DNA of 64,000 bases from an uncultured Bacilli bacterium (GTDB taxonomy: Bacteria > Bacillota_I > Bacilli_A > RF39 > UBA660): positions 5,513 to 69,512 of the forward strand of contig CANPVU010000001.1 of assembly GCA_947581765.1 (NCBI GenBank), written 5' to 3'. The position numbers were made by a program, and so were the translations under genes. The first letter of the stretch is position 1. Every line of letters starts with the position of its first letter. Below, piece by piece: positions 21,184 to 57,519 of this stretch. The notes beneath the pieces are model-generated. The model made no database searches. It had not been told where the DNA came from and saw only the letters and a program-made list of their open reading frames with translations.

Positions 21184-21184
21184 C

Positions 21185-25889: not shown

Positions 25890-25912
25890 GAGAATCACCT
25901 TTCTTTTTATTA
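24855..25912. repeat. Inverted repeat B, right copy
   Basis: Reverse complement matches 8110-9195. Confidence 0.75.
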
Positions 25913-25941
25913 ATTTTGTTATAAAAATATATTTACATTAA

Positions 25942-27111: not shown

Positions 27112-27126
27112 AAATTTATCACTACC

Positions 27127-28326: not shown

Positions 28327-28334
28327 ATTAGCAC

Positions 28335-29456: not shown

Positions 29457-29535
29457 TTATGTACCTCTTTACAATGTAATTAATCTAATTATTAAAAAAA
29501 ATTTCCAACAACTTTTCTTAAAGTAAAATCCTTAG
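28365..29535. repeat. Inverted repeat A, right copy (includes a 40-nt remnant of the PHP gene 3' end)
   Basis: Reverse complement of 29457-29535 reproduces GATTTTACTTTAAGAAAAGTTGTTGGAAATTTTTTTTAATAATTAG...AAGAGGTACATAAATG found at 6901-6978. Confidence 0.8.
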
Positions 29536-29650
29536 TGAAAAATAATTTAAATGATTAATAATAAAAACTCATAGTTTTCTTATGTTTAAGATAAAACTAT
29601 GAGTTTTTTCTATAATGGGTTCACTTTAAGAAAATTTTAAATATCATAAA
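29457..29650. promoter_or_regulatory. Divergent promoter region with 16-bp perfect inverted repeat and TATAAT-GGGTTCACT element
   Basis: AAAAACTCATAGTTTT (29563-29578), 14-nt spacer, AAAACTATGAGTTTTT (29593-29608), then TATAAT (29611-29616) and GGGTTCACT (29617-29625). This is about 26 bp upstream of the 29651 start. Confidence 0.5.
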
Positions 29651-30529
29651 ATGTTTTTACTACAAAAAAAGAACAAATTGAAATGTTATGGAGGAAATAT
29701 GACAAAAAATAACTTATCATCAGTGCAAGCTCATGTGTTAGATATATTACATCAATTGATTGAATTATTTGAAAAAGAAAATATTTCTTATTACATCCTT
29801 GGTGGTACTATGTTAGGTGCTATTCGTCACAAAGGATTTATTCCATGGGATGATGATGTTGACATAGGTATACCCAGGGAAGACTACGAACGATTTTTAA
29901 AAGAATGTAACTCTAAACTATCACAATATTTAAAAATCAGAACATATAATGATGAATCATATCATCATTATTACTATGCAAGAGTAGTAGATACAAGATA
30001 CCATATAAAAAGAAAAGGTAGTATTAAAGAAAGAGAAGAAGAATTATGGGTAGACATTTTTCCTTTAGATGGAATGCCTAATAGCAAAATAAAAACAATA
30101 ATTCATAAAATTAAATTGTTGTTTATAAGACTGTTATATCATATGTCATGCTTTGATAAAGTTAATATAAAACGTCCGGGAAGGCCTGTAATTGATAGGA
30201 TAATAATTAAAGTTCTTATGGTTACCCATATATGCTCCTCTCTTAATAGTACTAAGCTTCTGAATAAAATTGACAAACTTTTAAAAAAATACCCTATTTC
30301 TAGTTCAAAATATGTATTTAATTTTATGGGAAGTACCCATGCATTTCGTGAGATTTTTAATAAAGAGTGTTTCGCAGAAGGTACTAAATATGATTTTGAA
30401 GATATGAGATTAATTGGTCCCAAAAACTATGATTTTTATTTAAAAAAACTGTATGGAGATTATATGAAACTGCCTCCCGAAAACGAAAGAAATATTCATG
30501 CAGATGAATTCGTTGAAAAGGAAGAATAG
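29651..30529 (+). CDS. LicD-family phosphotransferase
   Basis: [31 protein letters not shown]. Confidence 0.8.
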
Positions 30530-30548
30530 TTTTTAGAAAGGAGTAATA

Positions 30549-31433
30549 ATGCGTTTACATGATGTTTCTAAAAGTGCTTCAAATAGTGAAGTTCCTATTC
30601 TTTCTGAAGAGCAATTAAAAAAACTACAAAAATTATTATTATCCATACTAGAAGATATTGATTATATATGTGATAAATATAACCTAAAATATATTCTTAT
30701 AGGTGGTTCTGCAATTGGGGCAATGAGACATAAAGGATTTATTCCATGGGATGATGATATAGACATTGCTATAACCAGAAAAGATTATAATGAATTAGTA
30801 AAAATTATACGTACAGAATATTCAAATAAATATTCGATTTTTGATGCTAATGATGATAAAAATTATGGTAGAATTATTCCAAAAATTAGATTAAAAGGAA
30901 CTACATATAGAACAATACTAGAACCTGATCTTGAAGATTGTGGAATAAGAATTGATATATTTTTAATTGAAAATGTATTCAATAATTTCTTGCTCCGAAA
31001 TATTCAGGGTATCGGTTGTTTATTTTTTGGTTTTGCTTTATCATGCAGAAGACTTTATAGTCATAAAAACGAATTTAAAAATATTGTATCGGGTGTTTCA
31101 TTTAAAATTAAAAAGTTTCTAGGATTTATTTTTAGTTTTGCATCGTTAGAAACATGGGCAAGATGGACTAATAAATGGTATTCAATATGTAAAAAAGATG
31201 ATTCAAAGTATGTATCTGTTCCAACAGATGGAGCTCACTTTTTTGGTGAACTTACTAACAGAACAAATCTTTGTGATAGAAAAGAAATAATATTTGAAGG
31301 AAAAAAAAGATATGTACCAAGTTCGGTTGATTCTTATCTTACAAGAATTTATGGTAATTATATGAAAATTCCACCAATTGAAAAGCAACTTAGAAGTAAA
31401 TATTTAGAATATAATCTTGGTAAATATGAATAA
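30549..31433 (+). CDS. LicD-family phosphotransferase
   Basis: [31 protein letters not shown]. Confidence 0.8.
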   Translation: MRLHDVSKSASNSEVPILSEEQLKKLQKLLLSILEDIDYICDKYNLKYILIGGSAIGAMRHKGFIPWDDDIDIAITRKDYNELVKIIRTEYSNKYSIFDANDDKNYGRIIPKIRLKGTTYRTILEPDLEDCGIRIDIFLIENVFNNFLLRNIQGIGCLFFGFALSCRRLYSHKNEFKNIVSGVSFKIKKFLGFIFSFASLETWARWTNKWYSICKKDDSKYVSVPTDGAHFFGELTNRTNLCDRKEIIFEGKKRYVPSSVDSYLTRIYGNYMKIPPIEKQLRSKYLEYNLGKYE

Positions 31434-31436
31434 TTT

Positions 31437-32528
31437 ATGAGGAGGGATATTATGATTAATTTTACAGTTGGTCCTGTTCAATCAGACGAAAAGGTTCTTG
31501 AAATTGGTTCAAAAAATGTACCATATTTTAGAACACCAGAGTTTTCAGAAATAATGCTTGAAAATGAAAGAATAATGAAAAAATTGACTTTTGCCTCCGA
31601 AAATGATCGAGTTGTATTTATTACTGGATCTGGCACAGCTTCTATGGAAGCAGCTATTATGAATGTTTTTACACAAAACGATAAAGTTTTAGTAATAAAT
31701 GGAGGAAGTTTTGGACAAAGATTTGCGGAAATGTGTGAAATTCACGATATTCCATATACAGAAATTAAGCTTCAAACTGGTAAAACAATTGATGAAGAAT
31801 TATTAAAAAAATATGATAACCAAGGATATACAGGATTCTTAGTAAATATCCATGAGACATCTACTGGGGTTTATTATAATCTAAATATTATAAGTGATTT
31901 TTGTAAAAGAAATAACATTTTCCTTGTTGTTGATGCAATAAGTTCATTTCTAGCTGATTCGTTTAATATGACTGAATTAGGTGTCGATGTCATGATTACT
32001 GGTTCACAAAAAGCATTAGCCTGTCCACCTGGAATTTCAATAATTATACTTTCTGAAAAAGCTATAAATCGTGTAATGAATAATAATGTTAAATCAATGT
32101 ATTTCGATTTAAAACTAGCATTAAAGAATGGTGAACGAGGACAAACTCCTTTTACACCGGCTGTAGGTATTTTATTACAAATTCATGAAAGACTTAAACA
32201 AATTGAAAAAAATGGTGGAATAGCCGTTGAACAAAAGAAAATTTCAAAATTGGCAAACGATTTTAGAAATCGTATTAAGGATTTGCCACTTGATATTTGT
32301 TCGGAATCACTTTCGAATGCAGTTACTCCTCTTTCAACAAGAAATTGTTCAGCATATAATATTTTTACAACACTTAAAGATGAGTACGGAATATGGATTT
32401 GCCCCAATGGTGGTGATTTGAAAGACAAAGTATTTCGTGTTGGGCATATAGGAAATTTAACAATTAATGATAATATTAAACTTTCAGATGCACTTCATGA
32501 TTTATTCAAAAAAGGAATATTAAAATAA
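31437..32528 (+). CDS. Class V (AGAT/SPT-family) pyridoxal-phosphate aminotransferase
   Basis: MINFTVGPV...ITGSGTASMEAAIMNV...SQKAL(A)CPPG follows the layout of serine-pyruvate / 2-aminoethylphosphonate-pyruvate type transaminases. Likely start at MINF (31452). Confidence 0.6.
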   Translation: MRRDIMINFTVGPVQSDEKVLEIGSKNVPYFRTPEFSEIMLENERIMKKLTFASENDRVVFITGSGTASMEAAIMNVFTQNDKVLVINGGSFGQRFAEMCEIHDIPYTEIKLQTGKTIDEELLKKYDNQGYTGFLVNIHETSTGVYYNLNIISDFCKRNNIFLVVDAISSFLADSFNMTELGVDVMITGSQKALACPPGISIIILSEKAINRVMNNNVKSMYFDLKLALKNGERGQTPFTPAVGILLQIHERLKQIEKNGGIAVEQKKISKLANDFRNRIKDLPLDICSESLSNAVTPLSTRNCSAYNIFTTLKDEYGIWICPNGGDLKDKVFRVGHIGNLTINDNIKLSDALHDLFKKGILK

Positions 32529-32548
32529 ATTTATAAGGAGATTAGAAA

Positions 32549-33484
32549 ATGAAAATAATAACACATAAAATGATTGATAATTTAAACCTTGATTCAAATG
32601 TTTGGTACGAATGGGCTGAACATGTAATAAAAAATAAGCATATGTATAATATGCCAGCCAAAACTAGTATCCATTTTGGAAGTTCATACTTTAATACTAT
32701 GCCAAGTATTCTTCCACCCGAAAATGTAATGGGAGTTAAAGTAGTTAATCGTTATCTTGGAAGAATTCCATCTTTAGATAGTCAAATTTTACTATATAAA
32801 TATGATAATGGAGAAAATATTGCACTCATGGATGCAAGTAAGATTACGGCAATGAGAACTGGGGCAGTAGCTGTACATACTATGGAACTTTTTGCTAATG
32901 ATGACTTTTATGAAGTTGGTATTATGGGATTTGGAAATATAGGTATAGCAACAATGGATATTTTAACATCACATTATTCGAATAGAAATATGAAAATAAA
33001 ACTTCTACGTTATAAAGATCATGCAGAAAAAGTCATAGAACGTTATAAAGAATATTCGAATATTTCATTTGAAATTGTAGATTCTGTTAAAGAAATTATT
33101 GTTGGAAGTGATGTAATAATATCATGTATCACATATACAGAAGATTTGCTTGGTGAAGATGAATGGTATAAAGAGGGATGCCTCGTTATACCAGTACATT
33201 TAAGAGGTTTCCAAAATTGTGATTTATTCTTTGATAAAGTATATGGAGATGACTATAATCAAATAAAAGGATTTGAATATTTTGATAAATTTAAATATTT
33301 TGCTGAAACTGCTGAAGTACTTCGTGGAGAAAAAAAAGGTCGTGAAAATAAATCTGAACGTATAATATGTTATAGTGTTGGAATGTCTTTACACGATATA
33401 TATGCAGCATCAAAAATTTATTCATATTTTGATAATATTGATGATACTTTATCACTTTCACCTGATACAAGATATTGGATATAA
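32549..33484 (+). CDS. Ornithine cyclodeaminase / mu-crystallin family NAD(P)-dependent dehydrogenase
   Basis: ITAMRTGAVAVHT and GIMGFGNIG (Rossmann fold) match the OCD/mu-crystallin family (SbnB/alanine dehydrogenase-like). Confidence 0.55.
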   Translation: MKIITHKMIDNLNLDSNVWYEWAEHVIKNKHMYNMPAKTSIHFGSSYFNTMPSILPPENVMGVKVVNRYLGRIPSLDSQILLYKYDNGENIALMDASKITAMRTGAVAVHTMELFANDDFYEVGIMGFGNIGIATMDILTSHYSNRNMKIKLLRYKDHAEKVIERYKEYSNISFEIVDSVKEIIVGSDVIISCITYTEDLLGEDEWYKEGCLVIPVHLRGFQNCDLFFDKVYGDDYNQIKGFEYFDKFKYFAETAEVLRGEKKGRENKSERIICYSVGMSLHDIYAASKIYSYFDNIDDTLSLSPDTRYWI

Positions 33485-34833
33485 AAATTGGAGTTTCCAT
33501 GAAAAAAGTAATTACATACGGAACATACGATTTATTACATTATGGTCATATTCGGTTACTTGAAAGAGCCAAAGCTTTAGGGGATTATTTAATCGTAGCT
33601 GTAACATCCGATGATTATGATAAGTCACGTGGAAAAATCAATGTCAAACAATCGTTAATTGAACGTGTAGAAGCGGTACGTAAAACCGGACTTGCAGATG
33701 AAATAATTGTAGAAGAATATGAAGGTCAAAAAATTGATGATATTAAAAAATTTGATATTGATATATTTACTGTAGGTTCAGATTGGAAAGGTGTATTTGA
33801 TTATCTTTCAGAATATTGTGAGGTTGTTTATTTGGATAGAACTGAAGGAATTTCTAGTTCTGAACTTAGAAAATCAGAATATTTAATCAATTTAGGAATT
33901 GTAGGAGATTCATCATTTTTAAATAGAATTGAAAAAGAAGCTAAATTTGTTAATGGTATTGTATTATCTGGAATTTGTACAAATAAATGTGAAAAAATGT
34001 CTAATGCAATTTTGAAACTTCCTTTGGTAACTGATAACTACAAAACTTTATTAGAACATTCAGATGCTGTTTATATTCATTCAATACCTGAGGAACATTA
34101 TGTCCAAATTAAACAAGCATTACAAATGGGAAAACATGTTCTTTGTGAATCACCTATTGCTATGTCAATGGTTGAGTGGGAGGAACTACAAAAAATTGCA
34201 AAACAAAATAATTGTATCTTGATGGATGCCCTAAGAACTGCATATTCTACTGCATTTTGTAGATTATTACTTTTAGCAAAAACTGGTAAGATTGGGAAAG
34301 TACTATCAGTAGATGCTACTTGTACTAGTTTACGAAAAATTGATAAAAATCAACTATCCAAATCTTGGAATAGTATTTCAGCATGGGGACCCACTGCATT
34401 GTTACCGATATTTCAATTATTTGGTACAGAATATAAAATAAAGCAGATTGTTTCAAATTTTATTGATTCTAATCAAACGTTTGATTCATTTACTAAAATT
34501 TCATTTGTTTATCAAAATTCAGTGGCATCTCTAAAGGTAGGCATGGGGCTAAAATCTGAAGGAGAATTAATTATATCTGGTACAAAAGGATATATATACG
34601 TCCCTTCCCCATGGTGGAAAACTGACTATTTTGAAATTAGATATGAAAATCCATCTGAAAACAAGAGATATTTTTATCAACTTGATGGTGAAGGTATTAG
34701 ACTAGAACTTGTAACTTTTGCAAAATCTATATCTAGTGGAAAAAATCTTTCGTCAATAGACCAAGAAGTGTCTAAAGCAATTTGTAAAATTTTAGAAGAT
34801 TTTAAAAACTGTGAAGATATGATTATTATTTAA
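33475..34833 (+). CDS. Fusion protein: TagD-family cytidylyltransferase (N-terminal) plus Gfo/Idh/MocA-like oxidoreductase (C-terminal)
   Basis: N-terminal VITYGTYDLLHYGHIRLLERAKALGDYLIVAVTSDDYD. The C-terminal ~320 aa start LGIVGDSSF (Rossmann) with the dehydrogenase alpha/beta layout. Confidence 0.65.
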   Translation: MDIKIGVSMKKVITYGTYDLLHYGHIRLLERAKALGDYLIVAVTSDDYDKSRGKINVKQSLIERVEAVRKTGLADEIIVEEYEGQKIDDIKKFDIDIFTVGSDWKGVFDYLSEYCEVVYLDRTEGISSSELRKSEYLINLGIVGDSSFLNRIEKEAKFVNGIVLSGICTNKCEKMSNAILKLPLVTDNYKTLLEHSDAVYIHSIPEEHYVQIKQALQMGKHVLCESPIAMSMVEWEELQKIAKQNNCILMDALRTAYSTAFCRLLLLAKTGKIGKVLSVDATCTSLRKIDKNQLSKSWNSISAWGPTALLPIFQLFGTEYKIKQIVSNFIDSNQTFDSFTKISFVYQNSVASLKVGMGLKSEGELIISGTKGYIYVPSPWWKTDYFEIRYENPSENKRYFYQLDGEGIRLELVTFAKSISSGKNLSSIDQEVSKAICKILEDFKNCEDMIII

Positions 34834-34851
34834 GGAGCTGCGATATAGAAT

Positions 34852-35856
34852 ATGAAAAATAATAAACAAATCGAAAAAATTGATTTTGTAATTATATGGG
34901 TTGATGGAGATGATCCAGAATGGCAAAAAGAATATAATAAGTACAGAAATGTTGATGGTGATAAAAGAAATTCACGTTTTAGAGATATGGAATTATTGCA
35001 ATATTGGTTTAGAGGTGTAGAGAAATTTACTCCATGGGTAAATAAGATATATTTTGTTACATGCGGTCAAAAACCTACATGGTTAAACACTAATCATCCA
35101 AAACTTGTATGTATAAATCATAAAGATTATATACCTAAACAATATCTTCCTACTTTCTCAAGTCATACAATTGAGGACAATTTACATAGAATTAAGGATT
35201 TAAGTGAACGTTTTGTTTATTTTAATGACGATACATTTATAATCAAATCAATGCAACCAGAAGATTTTTTTAAAAATGGTCTTCCATGTGAATCTGCAGT
35301 TATGAACTATTCAGCCCCAAGAAAAGAACCACTCAATCTTGTTCCTTTTGTTAATGTGGCAACAATCAATAGAAATTTTATAAAAAAAGATGTATTAAGG
35401 AAAAATTTAAGAAAGTTTTTTTCCTTTAAATATAATAAATATTTAATAAAGAATTTCCAGTTTATTATTGGTACATGGTTTCCTGGATTTAAATATTTTC
35501 ACTTACCAACGTCATTCTTAAAATCTACCTTTGAAGAAGTGTGGCAAAAAGAATATGACCTACTTGATAAAACCAGTAGTCACAAATTTCGTGTTCTTAC
35601 AGACGTTAATCAATGGCTATTTAAAGATTGGCAAATATGTAGTGGAAAATTTTATCCTAGAAACACAAACATCGGATATTATGCAGTAATCGATAGTGAT
35701 ACTGCTTTGTATAATGCTATTGCAGCTATGAAAAAAAGAAAATATAAACTATTTTGTGCTAATGATGAAGATTATGAAAATTTTGATTTGATGAAATCAG
35801 AACTAAAAAAAGCATTCAATGACTTGCTACCCGAAAAAAGTAAATTTGAAATATAG
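34852..35856 (+). CDS. Stealth-family capsular hexose-1-phosphoryltransferase
   Basis: Stealth conserved regions: IDFVIIWVDGDDPEW (CR1), ELLQYWFRGVEKFTPWVNKIYFVTCGQ (CR2), FVYFNDD (CR3). Confidence 0.7.
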   Translation: MKNNKQIEKIDFVIIWVDGDDPEWQKEYNKYRNVDGDKRNSRFRDMELLQYWFRGVEKFTPWVNKIYFVTCGQKPTWLNTNHPKLVCINHKDYIPKQYLPTFSSHTIEDNLHRIKDLSERFVYFNDDTFIIKSMQPEDFFKNGLPCESAVMNYSAPRKEPLNLVPFVNVATINRNFIKKDVLRKNLRKFFSFKYNKYLIKNFQFIIGTWFPGFKYFHLPTSFLKSTFEEVWQKEYDLLDKTSSHKFRVLTDVNQWLFKDWQICSGKFYPRNTNIGYYAVIDSDTALYNAIAAMKKRKYKLFCANDEDYENFDLMKSELKKAFNDLLPEKSKFEI

Positions 35857-35867
35857 TAAGGTGTTGT

Positions 35868-36959
35868 ATGTTGAAATCAAAAAAAAATATTTTATTTTAT
35901 ATCTCATGGATTCTTTATTCTAGTTCATACTTCTTATTTGTTGCTTCAAGTTTGAAATACATAACTAACATTCATGCATATTATAAATTCTTTCAATATA
36001 TTGTAATTTTTTTACTTGCAATACAATTAATAAAATTAAAATATAATTTAAAAAATTTTTTAATAATTACTCTTTTGATTATTTTAGCATTTTTGGTTAT
36101 GAACATGGAAATTATGATTATAATACTTTTTATACTGTGTGCGAGAAATATCAATATAAAAAAATTTTTAAATTTTGATATTAAATTGAAATTGTTTTGG
36201 ATTATATCTATTATTTTTTTATTTATTATAGGAATATTACCTAATGTAGATGGTATTTTTTATCAAACATATAAACAATCATTTGGATTTCAACACCCAA
36301 ATACGTTAGCAATGAATTCATATCTAGTAATGATAGAATTTCTTAGTATTAAATTTAAAAATTTAAAACGTTTAGATATTATTTTATTATTTATTTTATT
36401 CATATTTGTGAATTCTATTACACATTCACGAACAGCAGGATATTCATTTGTTTTTTTATTTATTTTTACATTGATATCAAAAATATATCCAAAAGTTTTT
36501 AATCTAAAAATTGTAAAAATTGCAATAATTTTTCTTGCCCCGATGTTAGCACTTTTGACTGTATATTTAACTTTACAATATAGCTCTGGAAGTGATTTTA
36601 TTTTATCTTTAAATAAATTACTTTCTGGTAGAATCTTTTTGCAATATATGAATATGAAAAAATATAAAATTACATTATTTGGTCAAGAATTTGATGAATC
36701 TTTTATGTATTTTTTAGATAGTGGATATCTAAGGGCATTACTAGAATTCGGATTATTATTTTTAGTTTTAATGTGTACATTATATATTAGATTGATGCAT
36801 AAATGTTTAAAAAATAAAGAATATGGATTAACAATTCTTATTATATTTTGTGTGCTCTTAGGTTTCACTGAAAGCTCATTTTTGAAAATTGTTGTAAATG
36901 TCTCGTTTATATTATTTTTAAACAATGAATTAAGAAAAAAAATAGATAGTTTTGATTGA
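35868..36959 (+). CDS. Wzy-like polymerase membrane protein
   Basis: 363 aa, about 10 transmembrane helices, sits between Stealth and GT2 genes. Confidence 0.55.
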   Translation: MLKSKKNILFYISWILYSSSYFLFVASSLKYITNIHAYYKFFQYIVIFLLAIQLIKLKYNLKNFLIITLLIILAFLVMNMEIMIIILFILCARNINIKKFLNFDIKLKLFWIISIIFLFIIGILPNVDGIFYQTYKQSFGFQHPNTLAMNSYLVMIEFLSIKFKNLKRLDIILLFILFIFVNSITHSRTAGYSFVFLFIFTLISKIYPKVFNLKIVKIAIIFLAPMLALLTVYLTLQYSSGSDFILSLNKLLSGRIFLQYMNMKKYKITLFGQEFDESFMYFLDSGYLRALLEFGLLFLVLMCTLYIRLMHKCLKNKEYGLTILIIFCVLLGFTESSFLKIVVNVSFILFLNNELRKKIDSFD

Positions 36960-36986
36960 TTTTTTTACTAAATATGAGGTGATAAA

Positions 36987-37970
36987 GTGAACAAATTAGT
37001 ATCAATTATAATCCCTGTTTATAATGTTGAAAAATATTTAAATAGATGTGTTGAAAGTGTTGTAAACCAAATCTATAAAAATATTGAAATTATTTTGGTA
37101 GATGATGGTTCTCCAGATTCTTGCGGGAAAATGTGTGATGAATGGGGTAAAAAAGATTTGAGGATTAAAGTTATTCATAAAAAAAATGGTGGTCTGTCTG
37201 ATGCTAGAAACTTTGGTTTAAAAATAGCAACAGGAGAATACGTGCTATTTGTAGATTCAGATGATTGGATTTCAACTTCAATGGTTAAAGATATGGTCGA
37301 AAATATGGAAAAAAATAACGTCGATATGGTAATTTGCCAATTTTATCTTGCGTATGCAAACGGTAAAAAAATATGCAAATATAACAATATAATTGAAAAT
37401 CAAATATTTGATGTTAGACAGACTATTAAATTATTGCTAGATGATAAAATAATTACAAATCATATTTGGAGAAAATTATATAAAAGAAGGTTATTATATT
37501 CTAATTGTTTTCCAATTGGAATGAATTATGAAGATATTTATGTAATGCCTAAATTAATTTTTTCTTGCAAAAAAATATATTATACTAATAATCCATATTA
37601 TTACTATTTTCAAAATCAAAATAGTATTACGAATACAGCATCTTATAAAAATTCACTTGATCATTTTAAAGCAAAAAAACATAGTTTTGAACAAATTATA
37701 GAAAAATTTCCTGAAATGAAGCAAGAAGTTAAAATTATACAAGAAAAAACAATATTACATATATGCAATAATTTGATTAAGAATGAAAACAATTACAAGT
37801 TAACTAAATTAAAATTGAACATATTTACTGAATTAAGGAAAGAAAGTAAAAATTTAAATGGCTTAGATTTAAAATTCGGGCAAATGATTTTATTTAAAAC
37901 TTTTAAGCATTCTTTTAAAATTTTTCTAATACTTTGTTGGTTAAAAAAAATATATACTAGGAAAGGATAA
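36987..37970 (+). CDS. Glycosyltransferase family 2
   Basis: VSIIIPVYNVEKYLNRCVESVVNQ...ILVDDGSPDS...VDSDD. GTG start. Confidence 0.75.
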   Translation: MNKLVSIIIPVYNVEKYLNRCVESVVNQIYKNIEIILVDDGSPDSCGKMCDEWGKKDLRIKVIHKKNGGLSDARNFGLKIATGEYVLFVDSDDWISTSMVKDMVENMEKNNVDMVICQFYLAYANGKKICKYNNIIENQIFDVRQTIKLLLDDKIITNHIWRKLYKRRLLYSNCFPIGMNYEDIYVMPKLIFSCKKIYYTNNPYYYYFQNQNSITNTASYKNSLDHFKAKKHSFEQIIEKFPEMKQEVKIIQEKTILHICNNLIKNENNYKLTKLKLNIFTELRKESKNLNGLDLKFGQMILFKTFKHSFKIFLILCWLKKIYTRKG

Positions 37971-37974
37971 TAAA

Positions 37975-39051
37975 ATGAATTTAAGCAGAAAAAAATTTTT
38001 TATCAAGAATTTTCTTAAAATGATAATAGGATATTTTTTAAATATTAAGAATTTTAAAAATTATGACGAAAATACTATATTCTTTATAGGCGTGCCAGAG
38101 TATGGAAATTTAGGTGATCAGGCAATTGCTAAAGCTGAAATAAACTTTTTAAAAAAAATTTTACCTGAAAGTGAAATTGTGGTTATTACAGAGAAAAAAA
38201 GTATGGAAAATTTACTATGCATAAAAAAAACAACTAATAAATTTCACAATATTTGTACATTCATTGGTGGTGGAAATATGGGAGATTTATATTTTTTTCA
38301 AGAAAATCTTAGATTAACTGCAATAAAATTATTAAAAAAAGGAAAAATTATTATATTTCCTCAATCTATAGATTATAATGGAACCTCAAAACGATATAAA
38401 AAAGCAAAAAAAATATATGAGTCACATGATAATTTATTTTTATTTACACGTGAAAAAAATAGTGAGAAAAAAAGGAAATTATTATTTCCAATGTGCAAAG
38501 GTGGATTAGTTCCTGACATAGTATTATCATTAGAACCTAAAATTGAAAAAATAACTAGAAATGGAATTTACTTTTGCCTTAGAAATGACATAGAAAAAAA
38601 TGATAAAAGCTTAAAAATTATAACTGAATTAGAAAATTTTTCAAAAAAATTAAATTTTGAAATTAAAAAAATAGATACTAGTTGTTCTAAATATTGTACA
38701 AAATATGAAAAACAAAATATGCAATTAACTAATTTTCTAAAAGAGTTTTCTAAAGCTAATATAATTATAACAGATCGACTACATGGAATGATATTCAGTG
38801 TTATAACAAATACACCCTGTGTGGCTTTCGATAACACTACTGGAAAAAATAAGAGTCTATATAACACATGGCTAAATAAAGAAATGGTTTGTTTTATCGA
38901 TAATATTAATGATATTGAAAAAGCTAAATATTATATAAAAAAACATCAACAAAATAATCAGTATAATAAGAATTATCTGAATGAAATTAATAAATATTAT
39001 AAAATTTTAGAAAAAAGTATATTAGATTTTTACCAAAAAAGTTTTAAATAA
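37975..39051 (+). CDS. Polysaccharide pyruvyl transferase (CsaB/WcaK family)
   Basis: GNLGDQAIAKAE... and C-terminal ITDRLHGMIFSVITNTPCVAFDN, typical of PS_pyruv_trans. Confidence 0.7.
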   Translation: MNLSRKKFFIKNFLKMIIGYFLNIKNFKNYDENTIFFIGVPEYGNLGDQAIAKAEINFLKKILPESEIVVITEKKSMENLLCIKKTTNKFHNICTFIGGGNMGDLYFFQENLRLTAIKLLKKGKIIIFPQSIDYNGTSKRYKKAKKIYESHDNLFLFTREKNSEKKRKLLFPMCKGGLVPDIVLSLEPKIEKITRNGIYFCLRNDIEKNDKSLKIITELENFSKKLNFEIKKIDTSCSKYCTKYEKQNMQLTNFLKEFSKANIIITDRLHGMIFSVITNTPCVAFDNTTGKNKSLYNTWLNKEMVCFIDNINDIEKAKYYIKKHQQNNQYNKNYLNEINKYYKILEKSILDFYQKSFK

Positions 39052-39114
39052 ATTTGATTAAAAATTCATATGCTTATTTACAATCATTTTAGATTGGAGA
39101 TGAAAATCTGAATA

Positions 39115-40623
39115 ATGCGCACAAAAAAGTCAATTACAAACATATTTTTCAACTTCAGCAATCAATTTATTACTTTAATTTTAAGCTTTTTTTCAAGAAA
39201 CATTTTTATCCATACATTAGGTGTTGAATATCTTGGAATAAATGGACTATTTAGTGATGTTTTAGGAATGTTATCACTTGCAGATTTAGGATTTAATACA
39301 GCAATGGTTTATAGCTTTTATAAGCCTATTGCTGAAAACAATCAAGAAAAGATTTCAGCTTTAATAACATTTTATCGAAAAATATATAATTTAATAGCAA
39401 TTGCTATTTCAATTATTGGTCTATGCTTAACACCTTTCATAAAATATATTGTTAATACAGATAAATCAATTTCAAACCTCGAAATTTATTATTTATTTGC
39501 ACTAACAGGTGTAGTAATATCATATTTATTTGTTTATAAAACTTCTATAATAACAGCTGATCAAAAAAATTATATTGTAACAAGAATTACAATTGTTACA
39601 AATATAATAAAAACAATAATTCAAATAATATCATTAATTATATTTAAAAATTTTATTATGTATTTATCTATAAATATATTATTTAATTTGTTAAACAATA
39701 TAATTGCTTCACATAAAGCTGTTACTATGTATCCATATATAAAAAACAAAAGAAATTTACCAAAAAGTGAGATTAAAAACATATTTATAAATTTAAAATC
39801 TGTATTTTTATATAAACTTTCTTCTTTAATGTTAAATGCTACAGACAATATTTTAATCTCTATAATTGTTGGTACTATAGCTGTTGGATATTATTCAAAT
39901 TATTTAATGATTAGTAATAAACTTTCACAAATTATTTCCTTATTTTTTACATCTGTAACTGCAAGTATAGGAAATATTATTGTAAAAGAAAAAGCATCTA
40001 AAAGATATGAAATATTTTCTGTTGAACAATCAATAAGTTTTATTATAAGTGGAATTGTTATACCATGTTTTACAATACTTATAAATGATTTAATTATACT
40101 ATGGTTAGGAAAAGATTATTCATTAGGATATGTTTTAGCAATTGTATTAGCTTTAAACTTATATCTTTCTTGTGTTTTACAACCATTATGGTCATATAGA
40201 GAAGCAACTGGTTTATACCAAAAAACAAAATGGATTATGTTTATATGTGCAATTATTAATATTGTTTTGTCAATTATATTTGGTTTACTATTTGGACTAT
40301 CCGGTATAATATTAGCATCATTCATTGCTAGAATATCAACATATGTGTGGTATGAACCTCATATTTTATTTAAAGAATATTTCGAAAGTCCTCCATATAC
40401 ATACTTTAAAGATTTAATAAAAAATTTTATTACTATAATAATCATTACTGTATTTTTATTTATTATATCTTCTAAATTTACTTCAATATCATTTACTACA
40501 CTTATAATTAAAGGTTTAATTTGTAGCACAGTATCTATTCTTATGATATTAGTAATTTATAAGAATAGTGATGGTATTAAATATTTAAAGAAGAAATTAA
40601 TAAGGAAGAAAAATAAACTTTAA
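39115..40623 (+). CDS. Wzx-type flippase (MOP superfamily)
   Basis: 502 aa, 12-14 transmembrane helices. Confidence 0.7.
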   Translation: MRTKKSITNIFFNFSNQFITLILSFFSRNIFIHTLGVEYLGINGLFSDVLGMLSLADLGFNTAMVYSFYKPIAENNQEKISALITFYRKIYNLIAIAISIIGLCLTPFIKYIVNTDKSISNLEIYYLFALTGVVISYLFVYKTSIITADQKNYIVTRITIVTNIIKTIIQIISLIIFKNFIMYLSINILFNLLNNIIASHKAVTMYPYIKNKRNLPKSEIKNIFINLKSVFLYKLSSLMLNATDNILISIIVGTIAVGYYSNYLMISNKLSQIISLFFTSVTASIGNIIVKEKASKRYEIFSVEQSISFIISGIVIPCFTILINDLIILWLGKDYSLGYVLAIVLALNLYLSCVLQPLWSYREATGLYQKTKWIMFICAIINIVLSIIFGLLFGLSGIILASFIARISTYVWYEPHILFKEYFESPPYTYFKDLIKNFITIIIITVFLFIISSKFTSISFTTLIIKGLICSTVSILMILVIYKNSDGIKYLKKKLIRKKNKL

Positions 40624-40646
40624 AAGGATATAAAATCCTTTTTTTT
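40624..40646 (+). terminator. Rho-independent terminator after the flippase gene
   Basis: AAGGAT-ATAAA-ATCCTT followed by T8. Confidence 0.55.
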
Positions 40647-40673
40647 GTTTATTATATATAACGAAAAGCGAGG

Positions 40674-41597
40674 ATGATTTATATGAGAAAGAAAAAAGAA
40701 AATAAAGAATATTTAGGATATTATATAAATGAATTTATAAATATATCCAAGATAAGGAATAAGGAGTCTACTTATTCAAATTATTTATATACTATTAATT
40801 CTAGAATGATTGTATTATATAATACTAAGATAAAAAATATAGATATTAAGTTTATAAATGAGTATACTAATTATTTATTTGATAAAGGTTTATGTAGTAA
40901 AAGTATTAAAGATACTTTAATACTTTTAAATGAAATATTAAAATTAGCAGATATACATATTAATATACCTATGCCTAAAGTAATTAAAAAAGAAATTTCA
41001 GTATTTAATGAAGATGAACAAATAGAACTTGAAAAATACCTTTTAAATAGTCCTAATAGCGTTAATTTAGGTATATACCTATCACTTTATACTGGAATTA
41101 GAATTGGTGAACTATGCGCCTTAAAATGGGAAAATATAGACCTTATTAATAATAAGATAACTATTAAAAAAACAATGTTAAGAATTAAAGATACAAACCC
41201 TAATAATAGAAACAAAACTAAAGTAATAGTAGATTCACCAAAAAGTACATCATCTATAAGAGATATTCCACTACCACCTTTTATATCATCTATGTTATCT
41301 AAAATAACTAATATATTACCAGAATACTATTTACTTACAAATAGTATATCTTATATAGAACCTAGATTATTATATAAAAAATATAAACAAATACTTAGTG
41401 AATTAAACTTATCTAAATATAACTTTCATACAATGAGACATACATTTGCTACACGTTGTATAAACCAAAACTTCCCTATTAAAATAGTCTCAGAAATATT
41501 AGGACACTCTAGTGTTAAAATAACACTAGATAGATATGTACATCCTAATTATAATGAAAAAGTAAAAATGATGAATAATTTACAAAAATTATATTAA
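40674..41597 (+). CDS. Tyrosine site-specific recombinase (phage integrase / Xer family), stand-alone
   Basis: C-terminal HTMRHTFATRCINQNFPIKIVSEILGHSSVKITLDRYVH (R...HxxR...Y catalytic box) and an N-terminal SAM-like core-binding domain. Probable start at the second ATG (40683), preceded by GAGGA. Confidence 0.8.
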   Translation: MIYMRKKKENKEYLGYYINEFINISKIRNKESTYSNYLYTINSRMIVLYNTKIKNIDIKFINEYTNYLFDKGLCSKSIKDTLILLNEILKLADIHINIPMPKVIKKEISVFNEDEQIELEKYLLNSPNSVNLGIYLSLYTGIRIGELCALKWENIDLINNKITIKKTMLRIKDTNPNNRNKTKVIVDSPKSTSSIRDIPLPPFISSMLSKITNILPEYYLLTNSISYIEPRLLYKKYKQILSELNLSKYNFHTMRHTFATRCINQNFPIKIVSEILGHSSVKITLDRYVHPNYNEKVKMMNNLQKLY

Positions 41598-41598
41598 A

Positions 41599-41621
41599 AG
41601 TGTCTAAAGACACTTTTTTGA
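41599..41621 (+). terminator. Rho-independent terminator after the recombinase gene
   Basis: AAGTGTC-TAAA-GACACTT followed by T6. A second palindrome GATGAT-ATCTC-ATCATC at 41633-41650 lies next to the convergent gene end. Confidence 0.55.
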
Positions 41622-41654: not shown

Positions 41655-42338
41655 TTACTTAGATCCCTTACGTGATAATACTACTTTAAATGTCTTAAAA
41701 AATATTTTTACATCCATTTTAAATGATACATGATTAGAATAATACTTTTCTAACTCTAATCTCTTATCAAATGTAGTATCACTTCTTCCAGATACTTGCC
41801 AGTATCCAGTAAGACCAGGTTTAGTTTTAACTATATCATTATAGTAAACACCCATATCAAATTTTTCTCTTGGTAGGTAAGGTCTATTTCCTATTAAGGA
41901 CATATCCCCTTTTAATACATTAATTAATTGTGGTAATTCATCTAAAGATGCTATTCTAAGTATTTTCCCCATCTTAGTTATTCTAGGATCATTTTCCAAC
42001 TTTTTATTTATTTTATATTCTTGTGCCAACTCTTTGTTATTTTTAAGAATTTTTTCTAACTCATCATCAGCATTTACAATCATAGTTCTAAATTTATAAA
42101 ATTTAAATAATACCCCATTTTTCCCAATTCTTTTTTGTGTAAAAAATATCGAATGAAAATCCCCAGATAGCATATACGATATCTTTACAATAATAGAAAT
42201 AGGAATTAAAAGTAAACATCCAATAAATGAAAATATAATATCAAAAATTCTCTTTGATATTAAATATAATCTTTGTTTTGAAATACTAGTTGTTTTTACA
42301 TCCATACCAACAACATCAAACTGTGATATTTCATTCAT
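41655..42338 (-). CDS. Initiating undecaprenyl-phosphate sugar-phosphate transferase (Bac_transf family, small form)
   Basis: KRIFDIIFSFIGCLLL...FYKFRTM...DELPQLINVLKGDMSLIGNRP...PGLTGYWQVSGRS, the canonical bacterial sugar transferase C-terminal domain. Confidence 0.8.
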   Translation of the reverse strand: MNEISQFDVVGMDVKTTSISKQRLYLISKRIFDIIFSFIGCLLLIPISIIVKISYMLSGDFHSIFFTQKRIGKNGVLFKFYKFRTMIVNADDELEKILKNNKELAQEYKINKKLENDPRITKMGKILRIASLDELPQLINVLKGDMSLIGNRPYLPREKFDMGVYYNDIVKTKPGLTGYWQVSGRSDTTFDKRLELEKYYSNHVSFKMDVKIFFKTFKVVLSRKGSK

Positions 42339-42487
42339 AGTCTATACCCCTTTATCTAATTTTAAAACTAGCTTAAAAGCTAATTTTTTCAAGAAAACAG
42401 TCACTATAATACTACAAATTTTATATTTTTGCAACTCTTTATGTATATTTTTATTCAAAGTGATGTATATAATGAGTAATTATAAAA

Positions 42488-44023
42488 TTACTCATTATAT
42501 ACAGATATTATTTTACTTCTTGCTTTGTCTATTTCAGCTTGAGATGGTTCCATAACATATGTCCATGTTTCAGGTATTGTATAAGTATATCCTCTTGAAT
42601 CTTTTCCATCTACACTTTGCTTAACAATTTTCCAAGCACTCATATTATTTAACTGATTTTTTACTAATTTTTGAATAACACTTTTTGGCATATCAGTTAG
42701 ATAAAATGAACTAAATGATTGTAATAATTCATCATATTTTAACAACAATGATTTGTTTTTAAACATTTTATTCATAATAGCTTCTAATACTTGTTGTTGA
42801 TTTAATACTCTATGTCTATCTCCGCCTTTATATGCATATCTTTCTCTTGCATATGCTAAGGCATGTTCACCGTCTAAGTGATTCCATCCTTTAGGAACTA
42901 CCCATCCTTTAATATGGTATGAATTAAATGTTATATCTGAGTATACATCTACTCCCCCTATTAAGTCTACTAATTTAACTACAGAAGTAAATCCTACTTT
43001 AACAGTATAATCAATTTTTATATCAAATATACTCTCTATAGTCTTTTTAGTCATATTCATTCCATACATACCACTATGTGTTAACTTATCTCTTAACCCT
43101 GTTGTACCAGGTAATTGTATATAATAATCTCTTGGTATACTAGTAAGTAATATAGTCCTTGTACTAGGATTTAATGTCATAATCATATTAACATCAGATA
43201 AAGAATTATTTACTATATTAGTAGTTCTACTATCACTACCAGATATTAATATATTTATTCCATTAGCATTACTTTTTTGTTTTACAGTATTAGAATTATT
43301 ACTAGTACTAGTTTTATTACTACTATTACTATTACTTACATCATTACTAGTATTATTACTATTACTGTTACTATTACTATTATTATTGCTTACATCATTA
43401 TTAATAATAATTTTATCTTCATATTCATAAGAATAAATAATTCTAATATTTGAAGCAGAATCACTAACTACTTCCTCTAATAAATCTAAGTAAACACTAT
43501 TAGATACAAATGAATCTATCTTATTATTTTTTAAATCCTTATATAATTGACTTACATCTTTATAACTTTTAAATTGAATATTTATTTTACTTTTAATCTC
43601 ACTTAAATAATCAGGACTAATAGTACTATTATCTATATATCCCATAGTTTTATTATTTAATGATTCAATCTTATCATAATTACTATCCTTTAATACTACT
43701 ACATTATATGCTGATTTCTCAACTTCGTAATTATTAAATCCATTATCTAAAAAATCATTAGTACTATCTACATACTTAATACCTATACCACATAATATAA
43801 TTAATATTACATATATAATACCACTAACTATTTTAGTCCATATCTTCTTAACAAATATACCTATAATACCAATTATATTTAATATAACAATACCTGCTAT
43901 TATTAAGTATAAATATTTATTAGGAATCATATCAAGATCTATTAACTCTTTTACAAGCCAACCAGAAAGAACTAATACTACAAATACTATAATTATTCTT
44001 AATATAGTCCATATCTTCTTCAT
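42488..44023 (-). CDS. LytR-CpsA-Psr (LCP) family glycopolymer-to-peptidoglycan ligase
   Basis: N-terminal transmembrane segments, Asn/Ser-rich linker, then INILISGSDSR...VNMIMTLNPSTRTILLTSIPRDYY LCP core. Confidence 0.75.
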   Translation of the reverse strand: MKKIWTILRIIIVFVVLVLSGWLVKELIDLDMIPNKYLYLIIAGIVILNIIGIIGIFVKKIWTKIVSGIIYVILIILCGIGIKYVDSTNDFLDNGFNNYEVEKSAYNVVVLKDSNYDKIESLNNKTMGYIDNSTISPDYLSEIKSKINIQFKSYKDVSQLYKDLKNNKIDSFVSNSVYLDLLEEVVSDSASNIRIIYSYEYEDKIIINNDVSNNNSNSNSNSNNTSNDVSNSNSSNKTSTSNNSNTVKQKSNANGINILISGSDSRTTNIVNNSLSDVNMIMTLNPSTRTILLTSIPRDYYIQLPGTTGLRDKLTHSGMYGMNMTKKTIESIFDIKIDYTVKVGFTSVVKLVDLIGGVDVYSDITFNSYHIKGWVVPKGWNHLDGEHALAYARERYAYKGGDRHRVLNQQQVLEAIMNKMFKNKSLLLKYDELLQSFSSFYLTDMPKSVIQKLVKNQLNNMSAWKIVKQSVDGKDSRGYTYTIPETWTYVMEPSQAEIDKARSKIISVYNE

Positions 44024-46042: not shown

Positions 46043-47590
46043 TTAATAAAGTGATTGTGAATACTCAATTGGTTCATATACAGTTCCTGTAAACCATACC
46101 TCACCTGAGTTTTTATCTCTAACTAAGAATAAATATGGTTTATCAAAAGTTAAATCTATACTTTCTATTGGAACTTCATATAAATAATCAAATCCACATT
46201 TAGAAGATCCTAACCCTTCAAGTGTAACTGGATCTGCTTCCTTAATTCCATCATTTGAAAAATCTACATCTACTTTGTGCTCTATACTATCTAAATAAAC
46301 CTTACTATCTATTAAATTAGATAAATTAGCCTTCTTACTATCAAAAACATCAGTTATACCTAATTTATTTAAATCTTCCTCTAAATTAATTCTAGATAAA
46401 ATATCAAATACTGGAATAGTTCCTTCTACTTTTGTAATTACTCCATCTTTAAAGCTATCTAACTCTATACCTTTAAGATTATTAATTAAATTATTTATAT
46501 CTGAAGAATTAATACCATCAATATATTTTTTCAAACTTACCTTTGTTGGCATAATACCTACATATTGTAATGTAATACCATTATACTCTTTTAAATCTTT
46601 AGCAAATACCTTTACGTTATCATCAGTATAAAACATAAAGTCAGTAGAACTAGTCACATCATCATAACCAATATTAATTTCTTGAAGATATTTATCTACA
46701 TATACTTTTGCAGGCATTTCTTTTGTAGGATCACCAGAACATGATTTTGGAGCACCCTCTTCTAACCATTTTTTATACTCATTAATTACATTTTGTCTTA
46801 TATTTTCCATACCTAAAGAATTAATAATATCATACCTATTAGCTACTGCTGATATTTTTACAGCCTTAGCCTCCATTGCATTATCATTAAACTTTAAATT
46901 AGTATAATCTTTTGCATTTAATGGTCCTATATACTCAAGAAACTTTCTATGGTGATAATTAATAAAATATGGTCTATCAGAATCTTGTATCTTATTTTCC
47001 CAATCCATATCTATAGCAAGTGTATTAAGTAAAACAAAATTCTTATCAGATATATCATCAACCATGTTATCAATTAAATTAAATGTTCTATTTCCAACCC
47101 AACTATTTATTTTATCTGATGTATTAAATGAATCATATATAACATCAGCATCATATTTATCTTTTATTGAACTAATATATTTACTCTTTATTTTATCTTT
47201 TAGGGAATCTCTAACAAATAAAGCATTTACAAAAGACATAGTCTCAGTATTTGTATATCTACCATAATCATAAGTACCTATAACATCAGTTATCTGTTTT
47301 TTACTATTACCAACAGATCCTTCCTGTAACATTTTTAGTGCATACTTAATAGCAATTGGACTATATGCCTTATTCTTCTCTTCATTTTCAAGTTTCAAAA
47401 AATATAAATCAAAATCTTGTAAACTATTACCATTTAATCTATATTTGGAACTTTCTTTATTAATCTTAATTGGGAGCAATAAACTTATCCCTAAAGCTAT
47501 AACAATAAACAATAATAATACAATTACTATTCTCATTATACTATTATATTTGTTATTATTAACAGTTTCAACATTTTGATCTTTTTCCAT
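46043..47590 (-). CDS. Serpin (serine protease inhibitor) with N-terminal membrane anchor
   Basis: C-terminal DKPYLFLVRDKNSGEVWFTGTVYEP matches the serpin signature (PFLFxIR...FxGRVxxP). Internal AIKYALKMLQEGSVGNSKKQI and NALFVRDSL resemble serpin helix A and the s3A region. One transmembrane segment near the N-terminus. Confidence 0.65.
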   Translation of the reverse strand: MEKDQNVETVNNNKYNSIMRIVIVLLLFIVIALGISLLLPIKINKESSKYRLNGNSLQDFDLYFLKLENEEKNKAYSPIAIKYALKMLQEGSVGNSKKQITDVIGTYDYGRYTNTETMSFVNALFVRDSLKDKIKSKYISSIKDKYDADVIYDSFNTSDKINSWVGNRTFNLIDNMVDDISDKNFVLLNTLAIDMDWENKIQDSDRPYFINYHHRKFLEYIGPLNAKDYTNLKFNDNAMEAKAVKISAVANRYDIINSLGMENIRQNVINEYKKWLEEGAPKSCSGDPTKEMPAKVYVDKYLQEINIGYDDVTSSTDFMFYTDDNVKVFAKDLKEYNGITLQYVGIMPTKVSLKKYIDGINSSDINNLINNLKGIELDSFKDGVITKVEGTIPVFDILSRINLEEDLNKLGITDVFDSKKANLSNLIDSKVYLDSIEHKVDVDFSNDGIKEADPVTLEGLGSSKCGFDYLYEVPIESIDLTFDKPYLFLVRDKNSGEVWFTGTVYEPIEYSQSLY

Positions 47591-55440: not shown

Positions 55441-55459
55441 TTCTATCTCCTAAACTACT

Positions 55460-56839: not shown

Positions 56840-57519
56840 ATCTTACTCCTTCCTACTTTATATATACAATATACCATGAATGGGTACTTATTTACAAGGC
56901 AATTTACTACTTTTTTTGGTCTTATAAAGATCTAAATTCAATTGTTCATCATTATGAATATAAAGAAAAACAATTCGAACAATATTATAATTTTCTTTGA
57001 CATTTTAAAGTCAAATTTCATTTTGAACTCCCTGTAATATAACAAGATTATAATTTTTTTCAGTAATAAGGAATATACACATAAACAAAGGTATTAAAAA
57101 GAATTAAGGAACTCTTAGACGAAAGTCAATTAAGATATGTTTTCAAAAATTAAGAGAACTTTTAGACATAAAAAAACAAACAGATAAAAATATATCTATT
57201 TGTTAATTTACCAGATTATATACTTATATATTAAGTATTATAAAATCAACTTAGAAACTGGTTAAGAAACCACTACTATTAACTATCTATATATTCCTGT
57301 TAATAATTAAAGACTCTTATTAGAGTTCAAAATACTTATTATACAAATATTATAATATGATAAAATTCAGGATAAACCTTTCATTTTAAATTTATCATTT
57401 ATTTAAAATAAATGCAAATACATATAATTTATACCACTTATAATTTTTTTTTATAACATTAATGCTCATTGAAAAAAATAACAATTTATGATAGAATTTT
57501 TATGATAGGAGGATAGAAT

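Follow-up and report, generated by a model that had tools for sequence, protein, structure and literature searches.

A tyrosine recombinase gene at the edge of a variable polysaccharide locus in an uncultured Bacilli bacterium, and its candidate sites for promoter inversion

Organization of the locus

We analysed a stretch of 64,000 nucleotides from an uncultured Bacilli bacterium of the RF39 lineage (GenBank assembly GCA_947581765.1, contig CANPVU010000001.1, positions 5,513 to 69,512 of the forward strand), called the window hereafter, in which a tyrosine recombinase gene stands between a row of polysaccharide cassettes and a conserved polysaccharide module. The evidence, which is largely comparative, leads us to think that the recombinase is, on balance, probably an active site-specific DNA invertase dedicated to this wall-polysaccharide locus, which would reassign one promoter among four cassettes.

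The four operon-sized cassettes lie to the left of the recombinase gene, and each has its own flippase and glycosyl- or phospho-transferases (Table 1). The first runs past the left edge of the window, with genes for a GT2 glycosyltransferase, a pyruvyl transferase and a flippase. To the right, the minus strand codes for a single initiating phosphoglycosyl transferase (PGT), an LCP (LytR-CpsA-Psr) ligase, an acyltransferase and housekeeping proteins. A preliminary description of the window had placed the gene at the junction of variable and conserved DNA, and strain comparison bears this out. The identical 304-amino-acid (aa) protein is found on contigs of the same species with three different upstream cassettes: the window's own in L001, a second in L002 and L004-L007, and a third in L003. 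These contigs are 99.2-100% identical to the window from ~40612-40624 onward, the position of a hairpin 50 bp before the recombinase gene. A sister species (83% nucleotide identity) has a fourth cassette upstream, its alignment with the window starting at 40619. Thus, the slot of cassette 4 holds a different cassette in other strains, and the strain-variable DNA ends at ~40624. In the third variant (L003, positions 1-10000) the intergenic gaps are wide and a truncated glf (175 aa) adjoins the recombinase gene, which suggests that this cassette may be decaying.

The description had also spoken of terminators on both sides of the gene, and hairpins followed by runs of eight and six U residues are indeed present there (Table 1); as they are AT-rich, they are terminator-like rather than strong. 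The convergent PGT gene is served by a third hairpin, which is weaker (-5.4 kcal/mol).

The recombinase

The open reading frame at 40674-41597 (+) is intact and codes for 307 aa. The true start is probably the ATG at 40683 (304 aa), which has a GAGG 10 nt on its 5' side and is also the start in the gene calls on public contigs. The product is a member of the tyrosine recombinase superfamily: it matches Pfam Phage_integrase (PF00589) at 2e-22, and all the catalytic residues, including the box noted earlier, are present (R143, K190, H252, R255, H278 and Y288 in 307-aa numbering), in columns that are invariant or nearly so in family alignments. The SAM-like core-binding domain match (4e-6), the AF2 model (pLDDT 90, pTM 0.83) and the Foldseek matches of that model, which include lambda Int, XerA/XerH and Cre, all indicate a two-domain fold with a helical core-binding and a catalytic domain. 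The best PDB match is Tn1549 Int (TM 0.71), on whose residues 82-397 the model superposes, so that the window protein corresponds to the core-binding and catalytic part. It begins at the core-binding domain and has no N-terminal arm-binding domain of the lambda/Tn916/Tn1549 type; the matched Tn1549 construct is itself without residues 1-81.

The label 'Xer-type' given to this protein in the preliminary description has to be dropped, since its scores with the NCBIfam models are far under the cut-offs for XerC (51 versus 335), XerD (41 versus 330), XerS (34 versus 267) and XerA (82 versus 220). The same holds for the integron integrase model TIGR02249 (41, with a cut-off of 265). The window cassettes are operons of 6-14 kb, and no repeated cassette-end element was seen. 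The GC content is 24.9% for the window and 21% for the recombinase gene, and no relative of the recombinase in phages or plasmids is closer than 38%.

Comparison with the sister species gave a dN/dS of 0.15 and 89% aa identity for the recombinase, which makes it the best conserved of seven neighbouring genes (PGT 86%, LCP 82%, HisRS 80%); its dS is 0.37, versus 0.44-0.76 for its neighbours. The gene is thus intact and under purifying selection, and the possibility that it is a frameshifted remnant was not borne out.

A clade of short recombinases in polysaccharide loci

Most homologues of the recombinase, which come from metagenome-assembled genomes labelled uncultured Bacilli, Tenericutes or Erysipelotrichaceae, are ~364 aa long, with an N-terminal extension of about 55-60 residues. 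The extension has no sequence match in Pfam or PDB, and it is by its position that it might be called an arm-binding domain. In a neighbour-joining tree, the window recombinase belongs to a clade of proteins of 290-318 aa that are devoid of it. The window protein is 51-57% identical to the P0003-P0066 group of homologues, including 53% to P0042, and falls within the family, whose members are at least ~47% identical to proteins that adjoin the recombination sites described in the next section.

All seven clade lineages checked have their recombinase gene among polysaccharide genes, and in five of them (the window, L008, L009/L031, L101 and L013) it stands tail-to-tail with a Bac_transf gene. 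As for the other two, the L100 contig stops 400 bp past the recombinase gene, and the gene of L103 is adjoined by WecG and an acetyltransferase. The same convergent pair was found in 1 of 80 genome loci, nearly all of them long-form, and that locus is a clade member; the long-form P0042 and P0118 genes are found in unrelated contexts. The link to polysaccharide loci is kept across clade proteins that are only ~47% identical. These contexts show that the short-form clade is tied to polysaccharide loci. No conserved motif was found across lineages in the spacer between the recombinase and PGT genes.

Two differences between contigs of this clade were also recorded. L009 (5530-7985) and L101 (4183-4234) differ by a 2.4-kb indel of two genes, one for a 527-aa coiled/membrane protein and a 243-aa gene, that ends 15-67 bp upstream of the recombinase start. 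The contigs L009 and L010/L011 are 99.9-99.99% identical, and the GT_STM0557_N glycosyltransferase gene beside PGT (L009, 9890-11359) was called as 489 aa or 377 aa. We rejected an inversion as the cause of this length difference; it is a point difference, which may switch the gene start.

Recombination sites of the family

In the fetched loci, members of the family are accompanied by sites of a common architecture, namely 9-bp arms of the type WTCWYAAAG, in inverted orientation, on either side of an asymmetric centre of 7 bp (WTCWYAAAG-N7-CTTTRWGAW; 9-7-9 sites hereafter). Over the ~1.1 Mb scanned, we found 22 distinct pairs with reverse-complementary centres and a spacing of 136-178 bp, for a chance expectation of ~0.5 pairs (scaled from the per-window shuffle rate). 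The pairs mostly lie just 3' of the recombinase gene, in long-form loci typically with the first pair 35-60 bp after it, and L019 has four pairs within 6 kb, each with its own centre. Paired sites share 19-23 of 25 bases, and none of the four arms of a pair is poor (mean 10-12 bits, minimum 4.6).

Five contigs, L014-L018, carry an identical P0042 recombinase, and the sole difference among them is a 146-bp stretch bounded by the centres TGTATTA and TAATACA. In L014 and L017, this stretch reads as the reverse complement of its counterpart in L015, L016 and L018, without a single mismatch and with identical flanks. Both orientations of this segment, which carries a promoter-like TTGACT...TATAAT, thus occur in nature. 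In addition, L107, a 1385-bp contig recovered from four samples, is bounded exactly by the two sites flanking the P0118 gene, and it appears to be the assembler product expected at a flipping segment. The inversion at P0042 and the boundaries of L107 together identify the 9-7-9 elements as the recombination sites of the family.

Within the short-form clade, the independent lineage L100 has two 18/18 sites, TTCATAAAG TAACTAA CTTTGTGAA and, inverted, TTCTTAAAG TTAGTTA CTTTATGAA. They lie in a divergent intergenic region that heads an operon, between divergent polysaccharide operons, and they enclose a TTGACA-17-TATAAT promoter (12/12 consensus). Their arms are the same as those around GGGTTCA in the window, and the 7-bp centre alone differs.

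Other arrangements occur in long-form and more distant loci. The invertons 3' of the long-form genes in L014-L020 and L029 precede operons that code for two ~290-aa proteins of unknown type together with Amidoligase_2, GGACT and metallophosphoesterase proteins, and these may be phase-variable conflict or defence operons. In the more distant relatives L035, L037, L081, L082, L090 and L106/L107, it is the recombinase gene that is enclosed by a pair of inverted 9-7-9 sites, with ~1.36 kb between them. Downstream of it in L106, six genes, one of them signal-peptidase-like, form a module that is duplicated in tandem.

Candidate sites in the window

We scored the window with a position weight matrix built from the sites of other loci only. 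Five core sites at the cassette heads, called A, B, C, D and D' (Table 1), reach 25.3 (A), 22.3 (D), 15.1 (D'), 10.4 (C) and 2.4 bits (B), and the best site per shuffle had 7-19 bits and at most 19.3 (20 shuffles). The window locus thus harbours a full-consensus core site, A, and a near-perfect one, D. The centres of A and B are identical when read on opposite strands (TGAACCC/GGGTTCA), and the centre of C is that of B. We counted four copies of the 8-mer GGGTTCAC in the window, versus 0.34 expected, each of them in one of the two divergent intergenic regions at the cassette heads.

Sites A and B form an inverted pair with reverse-complementary centres, 146 bp apart and within the spacing of the family, and they enclose a promoter; any such pair arose in 8 of 300 shuffles. 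Promoter calls in this work are consensus matches only. Between D and C, no good promoter was found.

The preliminary description had put forward site-specific inversion or cassette acquisition as a candidate activity, and inversion is supported by the comparative evidence, i.e. the selection on the gene, the context of its clade, the sites of the family and the inversion at P0042. It had also stated that no obvious short inverted repeat pair flanking a promoter was seen by eye. Candidate sites have now been found at the cassette heads. They escaped the eye because paired sites share just 19-23 of 25 bases in the family and a core of only 7-11 bp in the window.

Table 1. Coordinates of the features discussed, in order along the window
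Feature	Position	Strand	Remarks
Cassette 1	468-6162	-	CTP-transferases, two LicD, GT4, acetyltransferase
Site A	6193-6217		TTCACAAAG TGAACCC CTTTGTGAA; centre 6202-6208; head of cassette 1; 18/18 matches, 25-26 bits
Candidate invertible promoter segment	6218-6338		between A and B, 139 bp centre to centre
Sigma-70-like promoter	6238-6265	-	TTGACT-16-TGgTATTAT; only strong one in the A-B region; points at cassette 1
Site B	6339-6363		TTCATAAAT GGGTTCA CTCAATGAG; inverted versus A; weak arms; head of cassette 2
Cassette 2	6422-15318	+	PHP, GT4, radical SAM, HAD, Wzy, TagF-like, cytidylyltransferase, flippase
Site D'	6893-6917		ATCGCAAAT GATTTTA CTTTAAGAA; in 3' end of PHP gene; inverted partner of D
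1.2-kb repeat, left arm (GT4 gene)	6902-8093		identity starts exactly at D' centre
Cassette 3	15388-29456	-	three GT4, radical SAM, GT2, sulfatase-like, flippase, TagF-like; also choline kinase/NTP-transferase, IspD-like
1.2-kb repeat, right arm	28339-29530		identity ends exactly at D centre
Site D	29515-29539		TTCTTAAAG TAAAATC CTTAGTGAA; head of cassette 3; 17/18 matches, 22-23 bits
Hairpin between D and C	29563-29608		terminator-like on both strands, -20.5 and -19.6 kcal/mol, z about -7
Site C	29608-29632		TTCTATAAT GGGTTCA CTTTAAGAA; head of cassette 4; only cassette-side arm good
Cassette 4	29651-40623	+	LicD, aminotransferase, Stealth, GT2, pyruvyl transferase, flippase
Hairpin + U8	40622-40648	+	terminator-like for cassette 4; -8.4 kcal/mol; 5' of recombinase gene
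Tyrosine recombinase gene, short form	40683-41597	+	304 aa; longest open reading frame from 40674 (307 aa)
Hairpin + U6	41597-41620	+	terminator-like; -9.4 kcal/mol; 3' of recombinase gene
Initiating PGT (Bac_transf)	41655-42338	-	tail-to-tail with recombinase gene
LCP ligase, conserved module	42488-44023	-	domain match

Two sets of junctions bear on the history of these sites. Firstly, a 1.2-kb inverted repeat with 99% identity links cassettes 2 and 3 (6894-8093 and 28339-29538). Its identity begins at the outer edge of the D' and D centres, no similarity extends beyond the outer arms, and the outer arms at the repeat edge are merely arm-like. Secondly, L002 is identical to the window across D, the hairpin and the first part of C, as far as GGGTTCA followed by CTTT, and then continues into a different cassette, whose first bases, CTTTGTGAC, resemble an arm of site A. 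The divergence between strains in this slot thus begins 4 nt past the C centre. Both sets record historical crossovers at the centres of C and of D/D'. A second inverted repeat (1128 nt, 98%) is present in the radical-SAM/SPASM genes of cassettes 2 and 3 (8115-9242 and 24769-25896), and in cassette 3 the first and second repeats are separated by two additional GT4 genes (25942-28326).

Several other elements of these regions were considered. A JUMPStart/ops-like leader or a known RNA was rejected as an explanation of GGGTTCAC, as there is no NusG paralogue, Rfam match or tRNA; the 8-mer is better explained as the centre of core sites. Likewise, the window open reading frames scanned contain no NusG-like domain that would point to UpxY (NusG-like) and UpxZ at operon heads, as in capsular polysaccharide (CPS) regulation of the Bacteroides type. 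The hairpin upstream of the recombinase gene shares TAAAATCCTT with site D, and we rejected it as a site: its arms match at 11/18 positions and the shared 10-mer is within chance. No second copies of this junction hairpin or of the recombinase upstream sequence were found in the window, and 13-mers from the cassette/gene and gene/PGT junctions are repeated only as AT-rich noise. Nothing useful came from scanning metagenomes for site A or from a search for P0072 relatives. A C7/G7 homopolymer tract (6218-6224) directly adjoins site A on its inner side, in the interval from the strong promoter to cassette 1; such a tract is unusual at a genomic GC content of 25% and might be an element of the slipped-strand type.

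A candidate promoter switch

From these features we infer that the window enzyme acts on the window sites, that inversion is ongoing in the species and that the sites follow a four-state logic. Recombination would take place only between sites with identical centres. In the sequenced state, the promoter between A and B would direct cassette 1. Inversion between A and B would turn it to cassette 2, with predicted junctions ...TTCACAAAGTGAACCC/ATTTATGAATTCATTAAA on the left (in a longer form, ATAAAATTCACAAAGTGAACCC/ATTTATGAATTCATTAAATTAGCC) and CATTGACAGGGGGGGTTCACAAAG/GGGTTCACTCAATGAGATAATT on the right. Inversion between A and C (23.4 kb) would bring the promoter to cassette 4 and leave cassette 1 beside the terminator-like hairpin; its predicted junctions are ...TTCACAAAGTGAACCC/ATTATAGAAAAAACTCATAG (also ...GTGAACCC/ATTATAGAAAAAACTCATAGTTTTATC) on the left and ...GGGGGGGTTCACAAAG/GGGTTCACTTTAAGAAAA (also ...GGGGGGGTTCACAAAG/GGGTTCACTTTAAGAAAATTTT) on the right. 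Sites D' and D bracket cassettes 2 and 3, and inversion between them (22.6 kb) would swap cassette 3 for cassette 2 behind the PHP gene. Otherwise, cassettes 3 and 4 have no good promoter and are kept apart by the two-strand terminator-like hairpin. The PGT and LCP genes lie outside the putative switch and would serve whichever cassette is on.

A more far-reaching and decidedly tentative proposal is that the locus is a four-state 'operon shufflon' and that the recombinase family uses the 7-bp centre as an address code, with one branch permanently stationed at polysaccharide loci. Such a shufflon would combine a single promoter with five core sites, which fall into two centre classes, and a single tyrosine recombinase without an arm domain. 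Nested inversions of 0.14, 22.6 and 23.4 kb would produce states that each express exactly one of the four cassettes, on the PGT/LCP module common to all. With the centre as an address code, one enzyme could run many independent switches per genome.

A number of observations weigh against inversion by the window enzyme. The partner sites in the window are too weak for all four arms to be near consensus: the arms of B score 2.1 and 0.8 bits, the left, promoter-side arm of C -2.2 and the outer arm of D' 2.8, all under the family minimum. On arm score alone, B and C would be indistinct from chance. All five window centres have the form T-N5-C, versus T-N5-A in 42 of 42 centres elsewhere, which may reflect a drifted specificity. 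The recombinase gene is 11-34 kb from the window sites. B and C are direct repeats, and recombination between them would therefore delete 23 kb. No flipped form was found in the species of the window: the A-B segment has a single orientation in five of five observations (the window and one contig present in four samples), and the arrangement of D, hairpin and C is unchanged in L002 and L004. Finally, no sites were found in the fetched stretches of four other clade lineages, and searches for inverted repeats or dyads in L008, L009, L101, L013 and L103 gave nothing convincing.

Alternative explanations

The recombinase may instead be a capture or exchange enzyme, by which whole cassettes are excised and integrated as circles at core sites, e.g. 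between B and C or at C; this activity would be compatible with inversion. Capture would produce strain-to-strain replacement beside the recombinase gene, and within one species the slot beside it does hold three different cassettes, whose boundaries are sharp, at the C centre on one side and at 40624 on the other. B and C share their centre in direct orientation, and the indel that distinguishes L009 from L101 provides a second lineage in which a 2.4-kb difference ends 15-67 bp upstream of the gene. However, the right boundary at 40624 is devoid of a site (best match 11-12/18), the junction motifs are not repeated, and homologous replacement driven by the flanks would also yield sharp boundaries. 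The truncated glf at the end of the L003 variant cassette, moreover, suggests that the exchange was illegitimate or homologous. Capture thus strikes us as unlikely.

We are equally sceptical of the idea that the sites are fossils, or that the enzyme now has another function, and that cassette diversity arises by homologous recombination, including RecA-mediated inversion across the 1.2-kb repeats. The weak arms at B, C and D' and the single orientation would be expected on this account, and the 1.2-kb (99%-identical) and 1.1-kb inverted repeats are ample for RecA, with no recombinase needed; these three points also tell against the proposed switch. Nevertheless, A and D are perfect or near-perfect 25-bp dyads, which would be hard to keep without selection in a 25%-GC genome. 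The dN/dS of the recombinase, its link with polysaccharide loci over such divergent proteins and the pristine inverton of L100 are likewise at odds with fossil sites.

It is rather improbable that a long-form paralogue encoded elsewhere is the real invertase, with the short protein as a locus-specific modulator, for instance a competitor or a directionality factor on the same arms. The observed or pristine adjacent invertons belong to long-form genes, except that of L100, and the short form is distant from its sites, which is a further point against its action on them. Yet the short form retains every catalytic residue, L100 pairs a short form with a perfect inverton, and the T-N5-C centres peculiar to the window (5/5, versus T-N5-A in 42/42 others) argue for a lineage-specific enzyme.

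Finally, the tail-to-tail position beside a conserved target gene is typical of integrases next to an attachment site, but a mobile island that targets the 3' end of the PGT gene with the cassettes as cargo is very improbable, as the recombinase gene has diverged in step with its flank (dS 0.37 versus 0.44-0.76), the variable DNA begins upstream of the gene rather than downstream, neither att-like direct repeats nor a duplicate of the PGT 3' end are present, the GC content agrees with that of the host and phage or plasmid relatives are distant (none closer than 38%). Inversion by the window recombinase at the cassette heads is the reading that we retain.

Other features of the conserved side

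A perfect palindrome with an 18-bp stem (42464-42503) lies at the LCP-PGT junction, across the stop codon of LCP. Its predicted RNA fold has -21 kcal/mol (z -7.2) with no U-run after it, and PGT expression could be affected through processing, stability or attenuation at this element. Further right, a large serine recombinase of 529 aa (59361-60950, -), with Resolvase, Recombinase and Zn-ribbon domains, is encoded directly upstream of a penicillin-binding-protein fragment (58479-59291) whose match to the transpeptidase profile starts at position 120 and which terminates in a PASTA domain. The arrangement at 58479-60950 resembles the insertion of an element into a spoVD/pbp-like gene. The locus is flanked by a serpin of 515 aa and by several large surface proteins (46043-47590 and 51685-63875). 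These surface proteins carry Listeria-Bacteroides (Flg_new) and Big_2 repeats, and the gene of one of them (868 aa, 61269-63875) has ~480-bp internal DNA repeats.

Comparison with known systems

In Bacteroides (Mpi of B. fragilis; recombinases beside the CPS loci of B. thetaiotaomicron), a site-specific recombinase flips promoters flanked by inverted repeats, and few loci are on. As in the window, these are gut commensals with several alternative polysaccharide loci. However, they belong to another phylum, their loci have UpxY/UpxZ genes, and Mpi is a serine recombinase. In the window, unlike in Bacteroides, one promoter would serve four cassettes arranged around a single PGT/LCP module, with inversions of blocks as large as 23 kb. 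The sap system of Campylobacter fetus has one promoter on an invertible segment, and inversions of different sizes express one of several surface (S)-layer genes, whose 5' regions are conserved and repeated, by RecA-dependent homologous recombination. The single promoter, the nested inversions and the repeated 5' regions, comparable to the 1.2-kb repeat, resemble the layout proposed here, whereas the involvement of RecA rather than a site-specific recombinase and the control of S-layer proteins rather than polysaccharide operons set it apart.

With respect to mode of action, RecV of Clostridioides difficile, one tyrosine recombinase that acts on several inverted-repeat sites, is similar to what we propose. 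In the R64 shufflon (Rci/sfx), multi-site inversion works with only one well-conserved arm per site. The targets of RecV and Rci are flagellar, cwpV or pilV genes, in contrast to the polysaccharide cassettes of the window. The Tn1549/Tn916 integrase, the best structural match, is ~19% identical to the window protein, from which it differs by its arm-binding domain and its transposon context.

In the eps2 locus of Bifidobacterium breve UCC2003, where an invertible promoter is suspected, two opposed polysaccharide operons lie on either side of an intergenic promoter bordered by inverted repeats; one of the operons stays silent as long as that promoter has not turned round, and the recombinase was not identified there (PMC4155821). 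This organism is also Gram-positive with divergent polysaccharide operons, but it has two of them and no nested large inversions. In Eggerthella lenta, 16-bp identical inverted repeats at CPS clusters mediate very large reversible inversions that alter which clusters are expressed, with no recombinase found beside the breakpoints (PMC13131767, a 2026 preprint). Those inversions, unlike the ones proposed for the window, are of megabase scale and occur in Actinobacteria.

We found no description in the literature of this recombinase clade, of its pairing with a PGT gene or of the 9-7-9 sites. Control of polysaccharides by invertible promoters is thus already known, and what is new is the enzyme family, the grammar of its sites and the single-promoter, multi-cassette layout.

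Biological significance

Phase-variable surface polysaccharides shape phage resistance, immune recognition and colonisation. To our knowledge, they are well understood mainly in Bacteroides, and we know of almost nothing on them in the abundant uncultured AT-rich gut Firmicutes. The present analysis provides a defined recombinase clade, a 25-bp site grammar of arms and an address-like centre, a natural inversion in a homologue that serves as proof of principle, and exact junctions to seek in existing metagenomic reads. Coat switching in these bacteria is now directly testable. In addition, the site grammar could reveal invertons that ordinary inverted-repeat searches overlook because paired sites share so few of their 25 bases (19-23).

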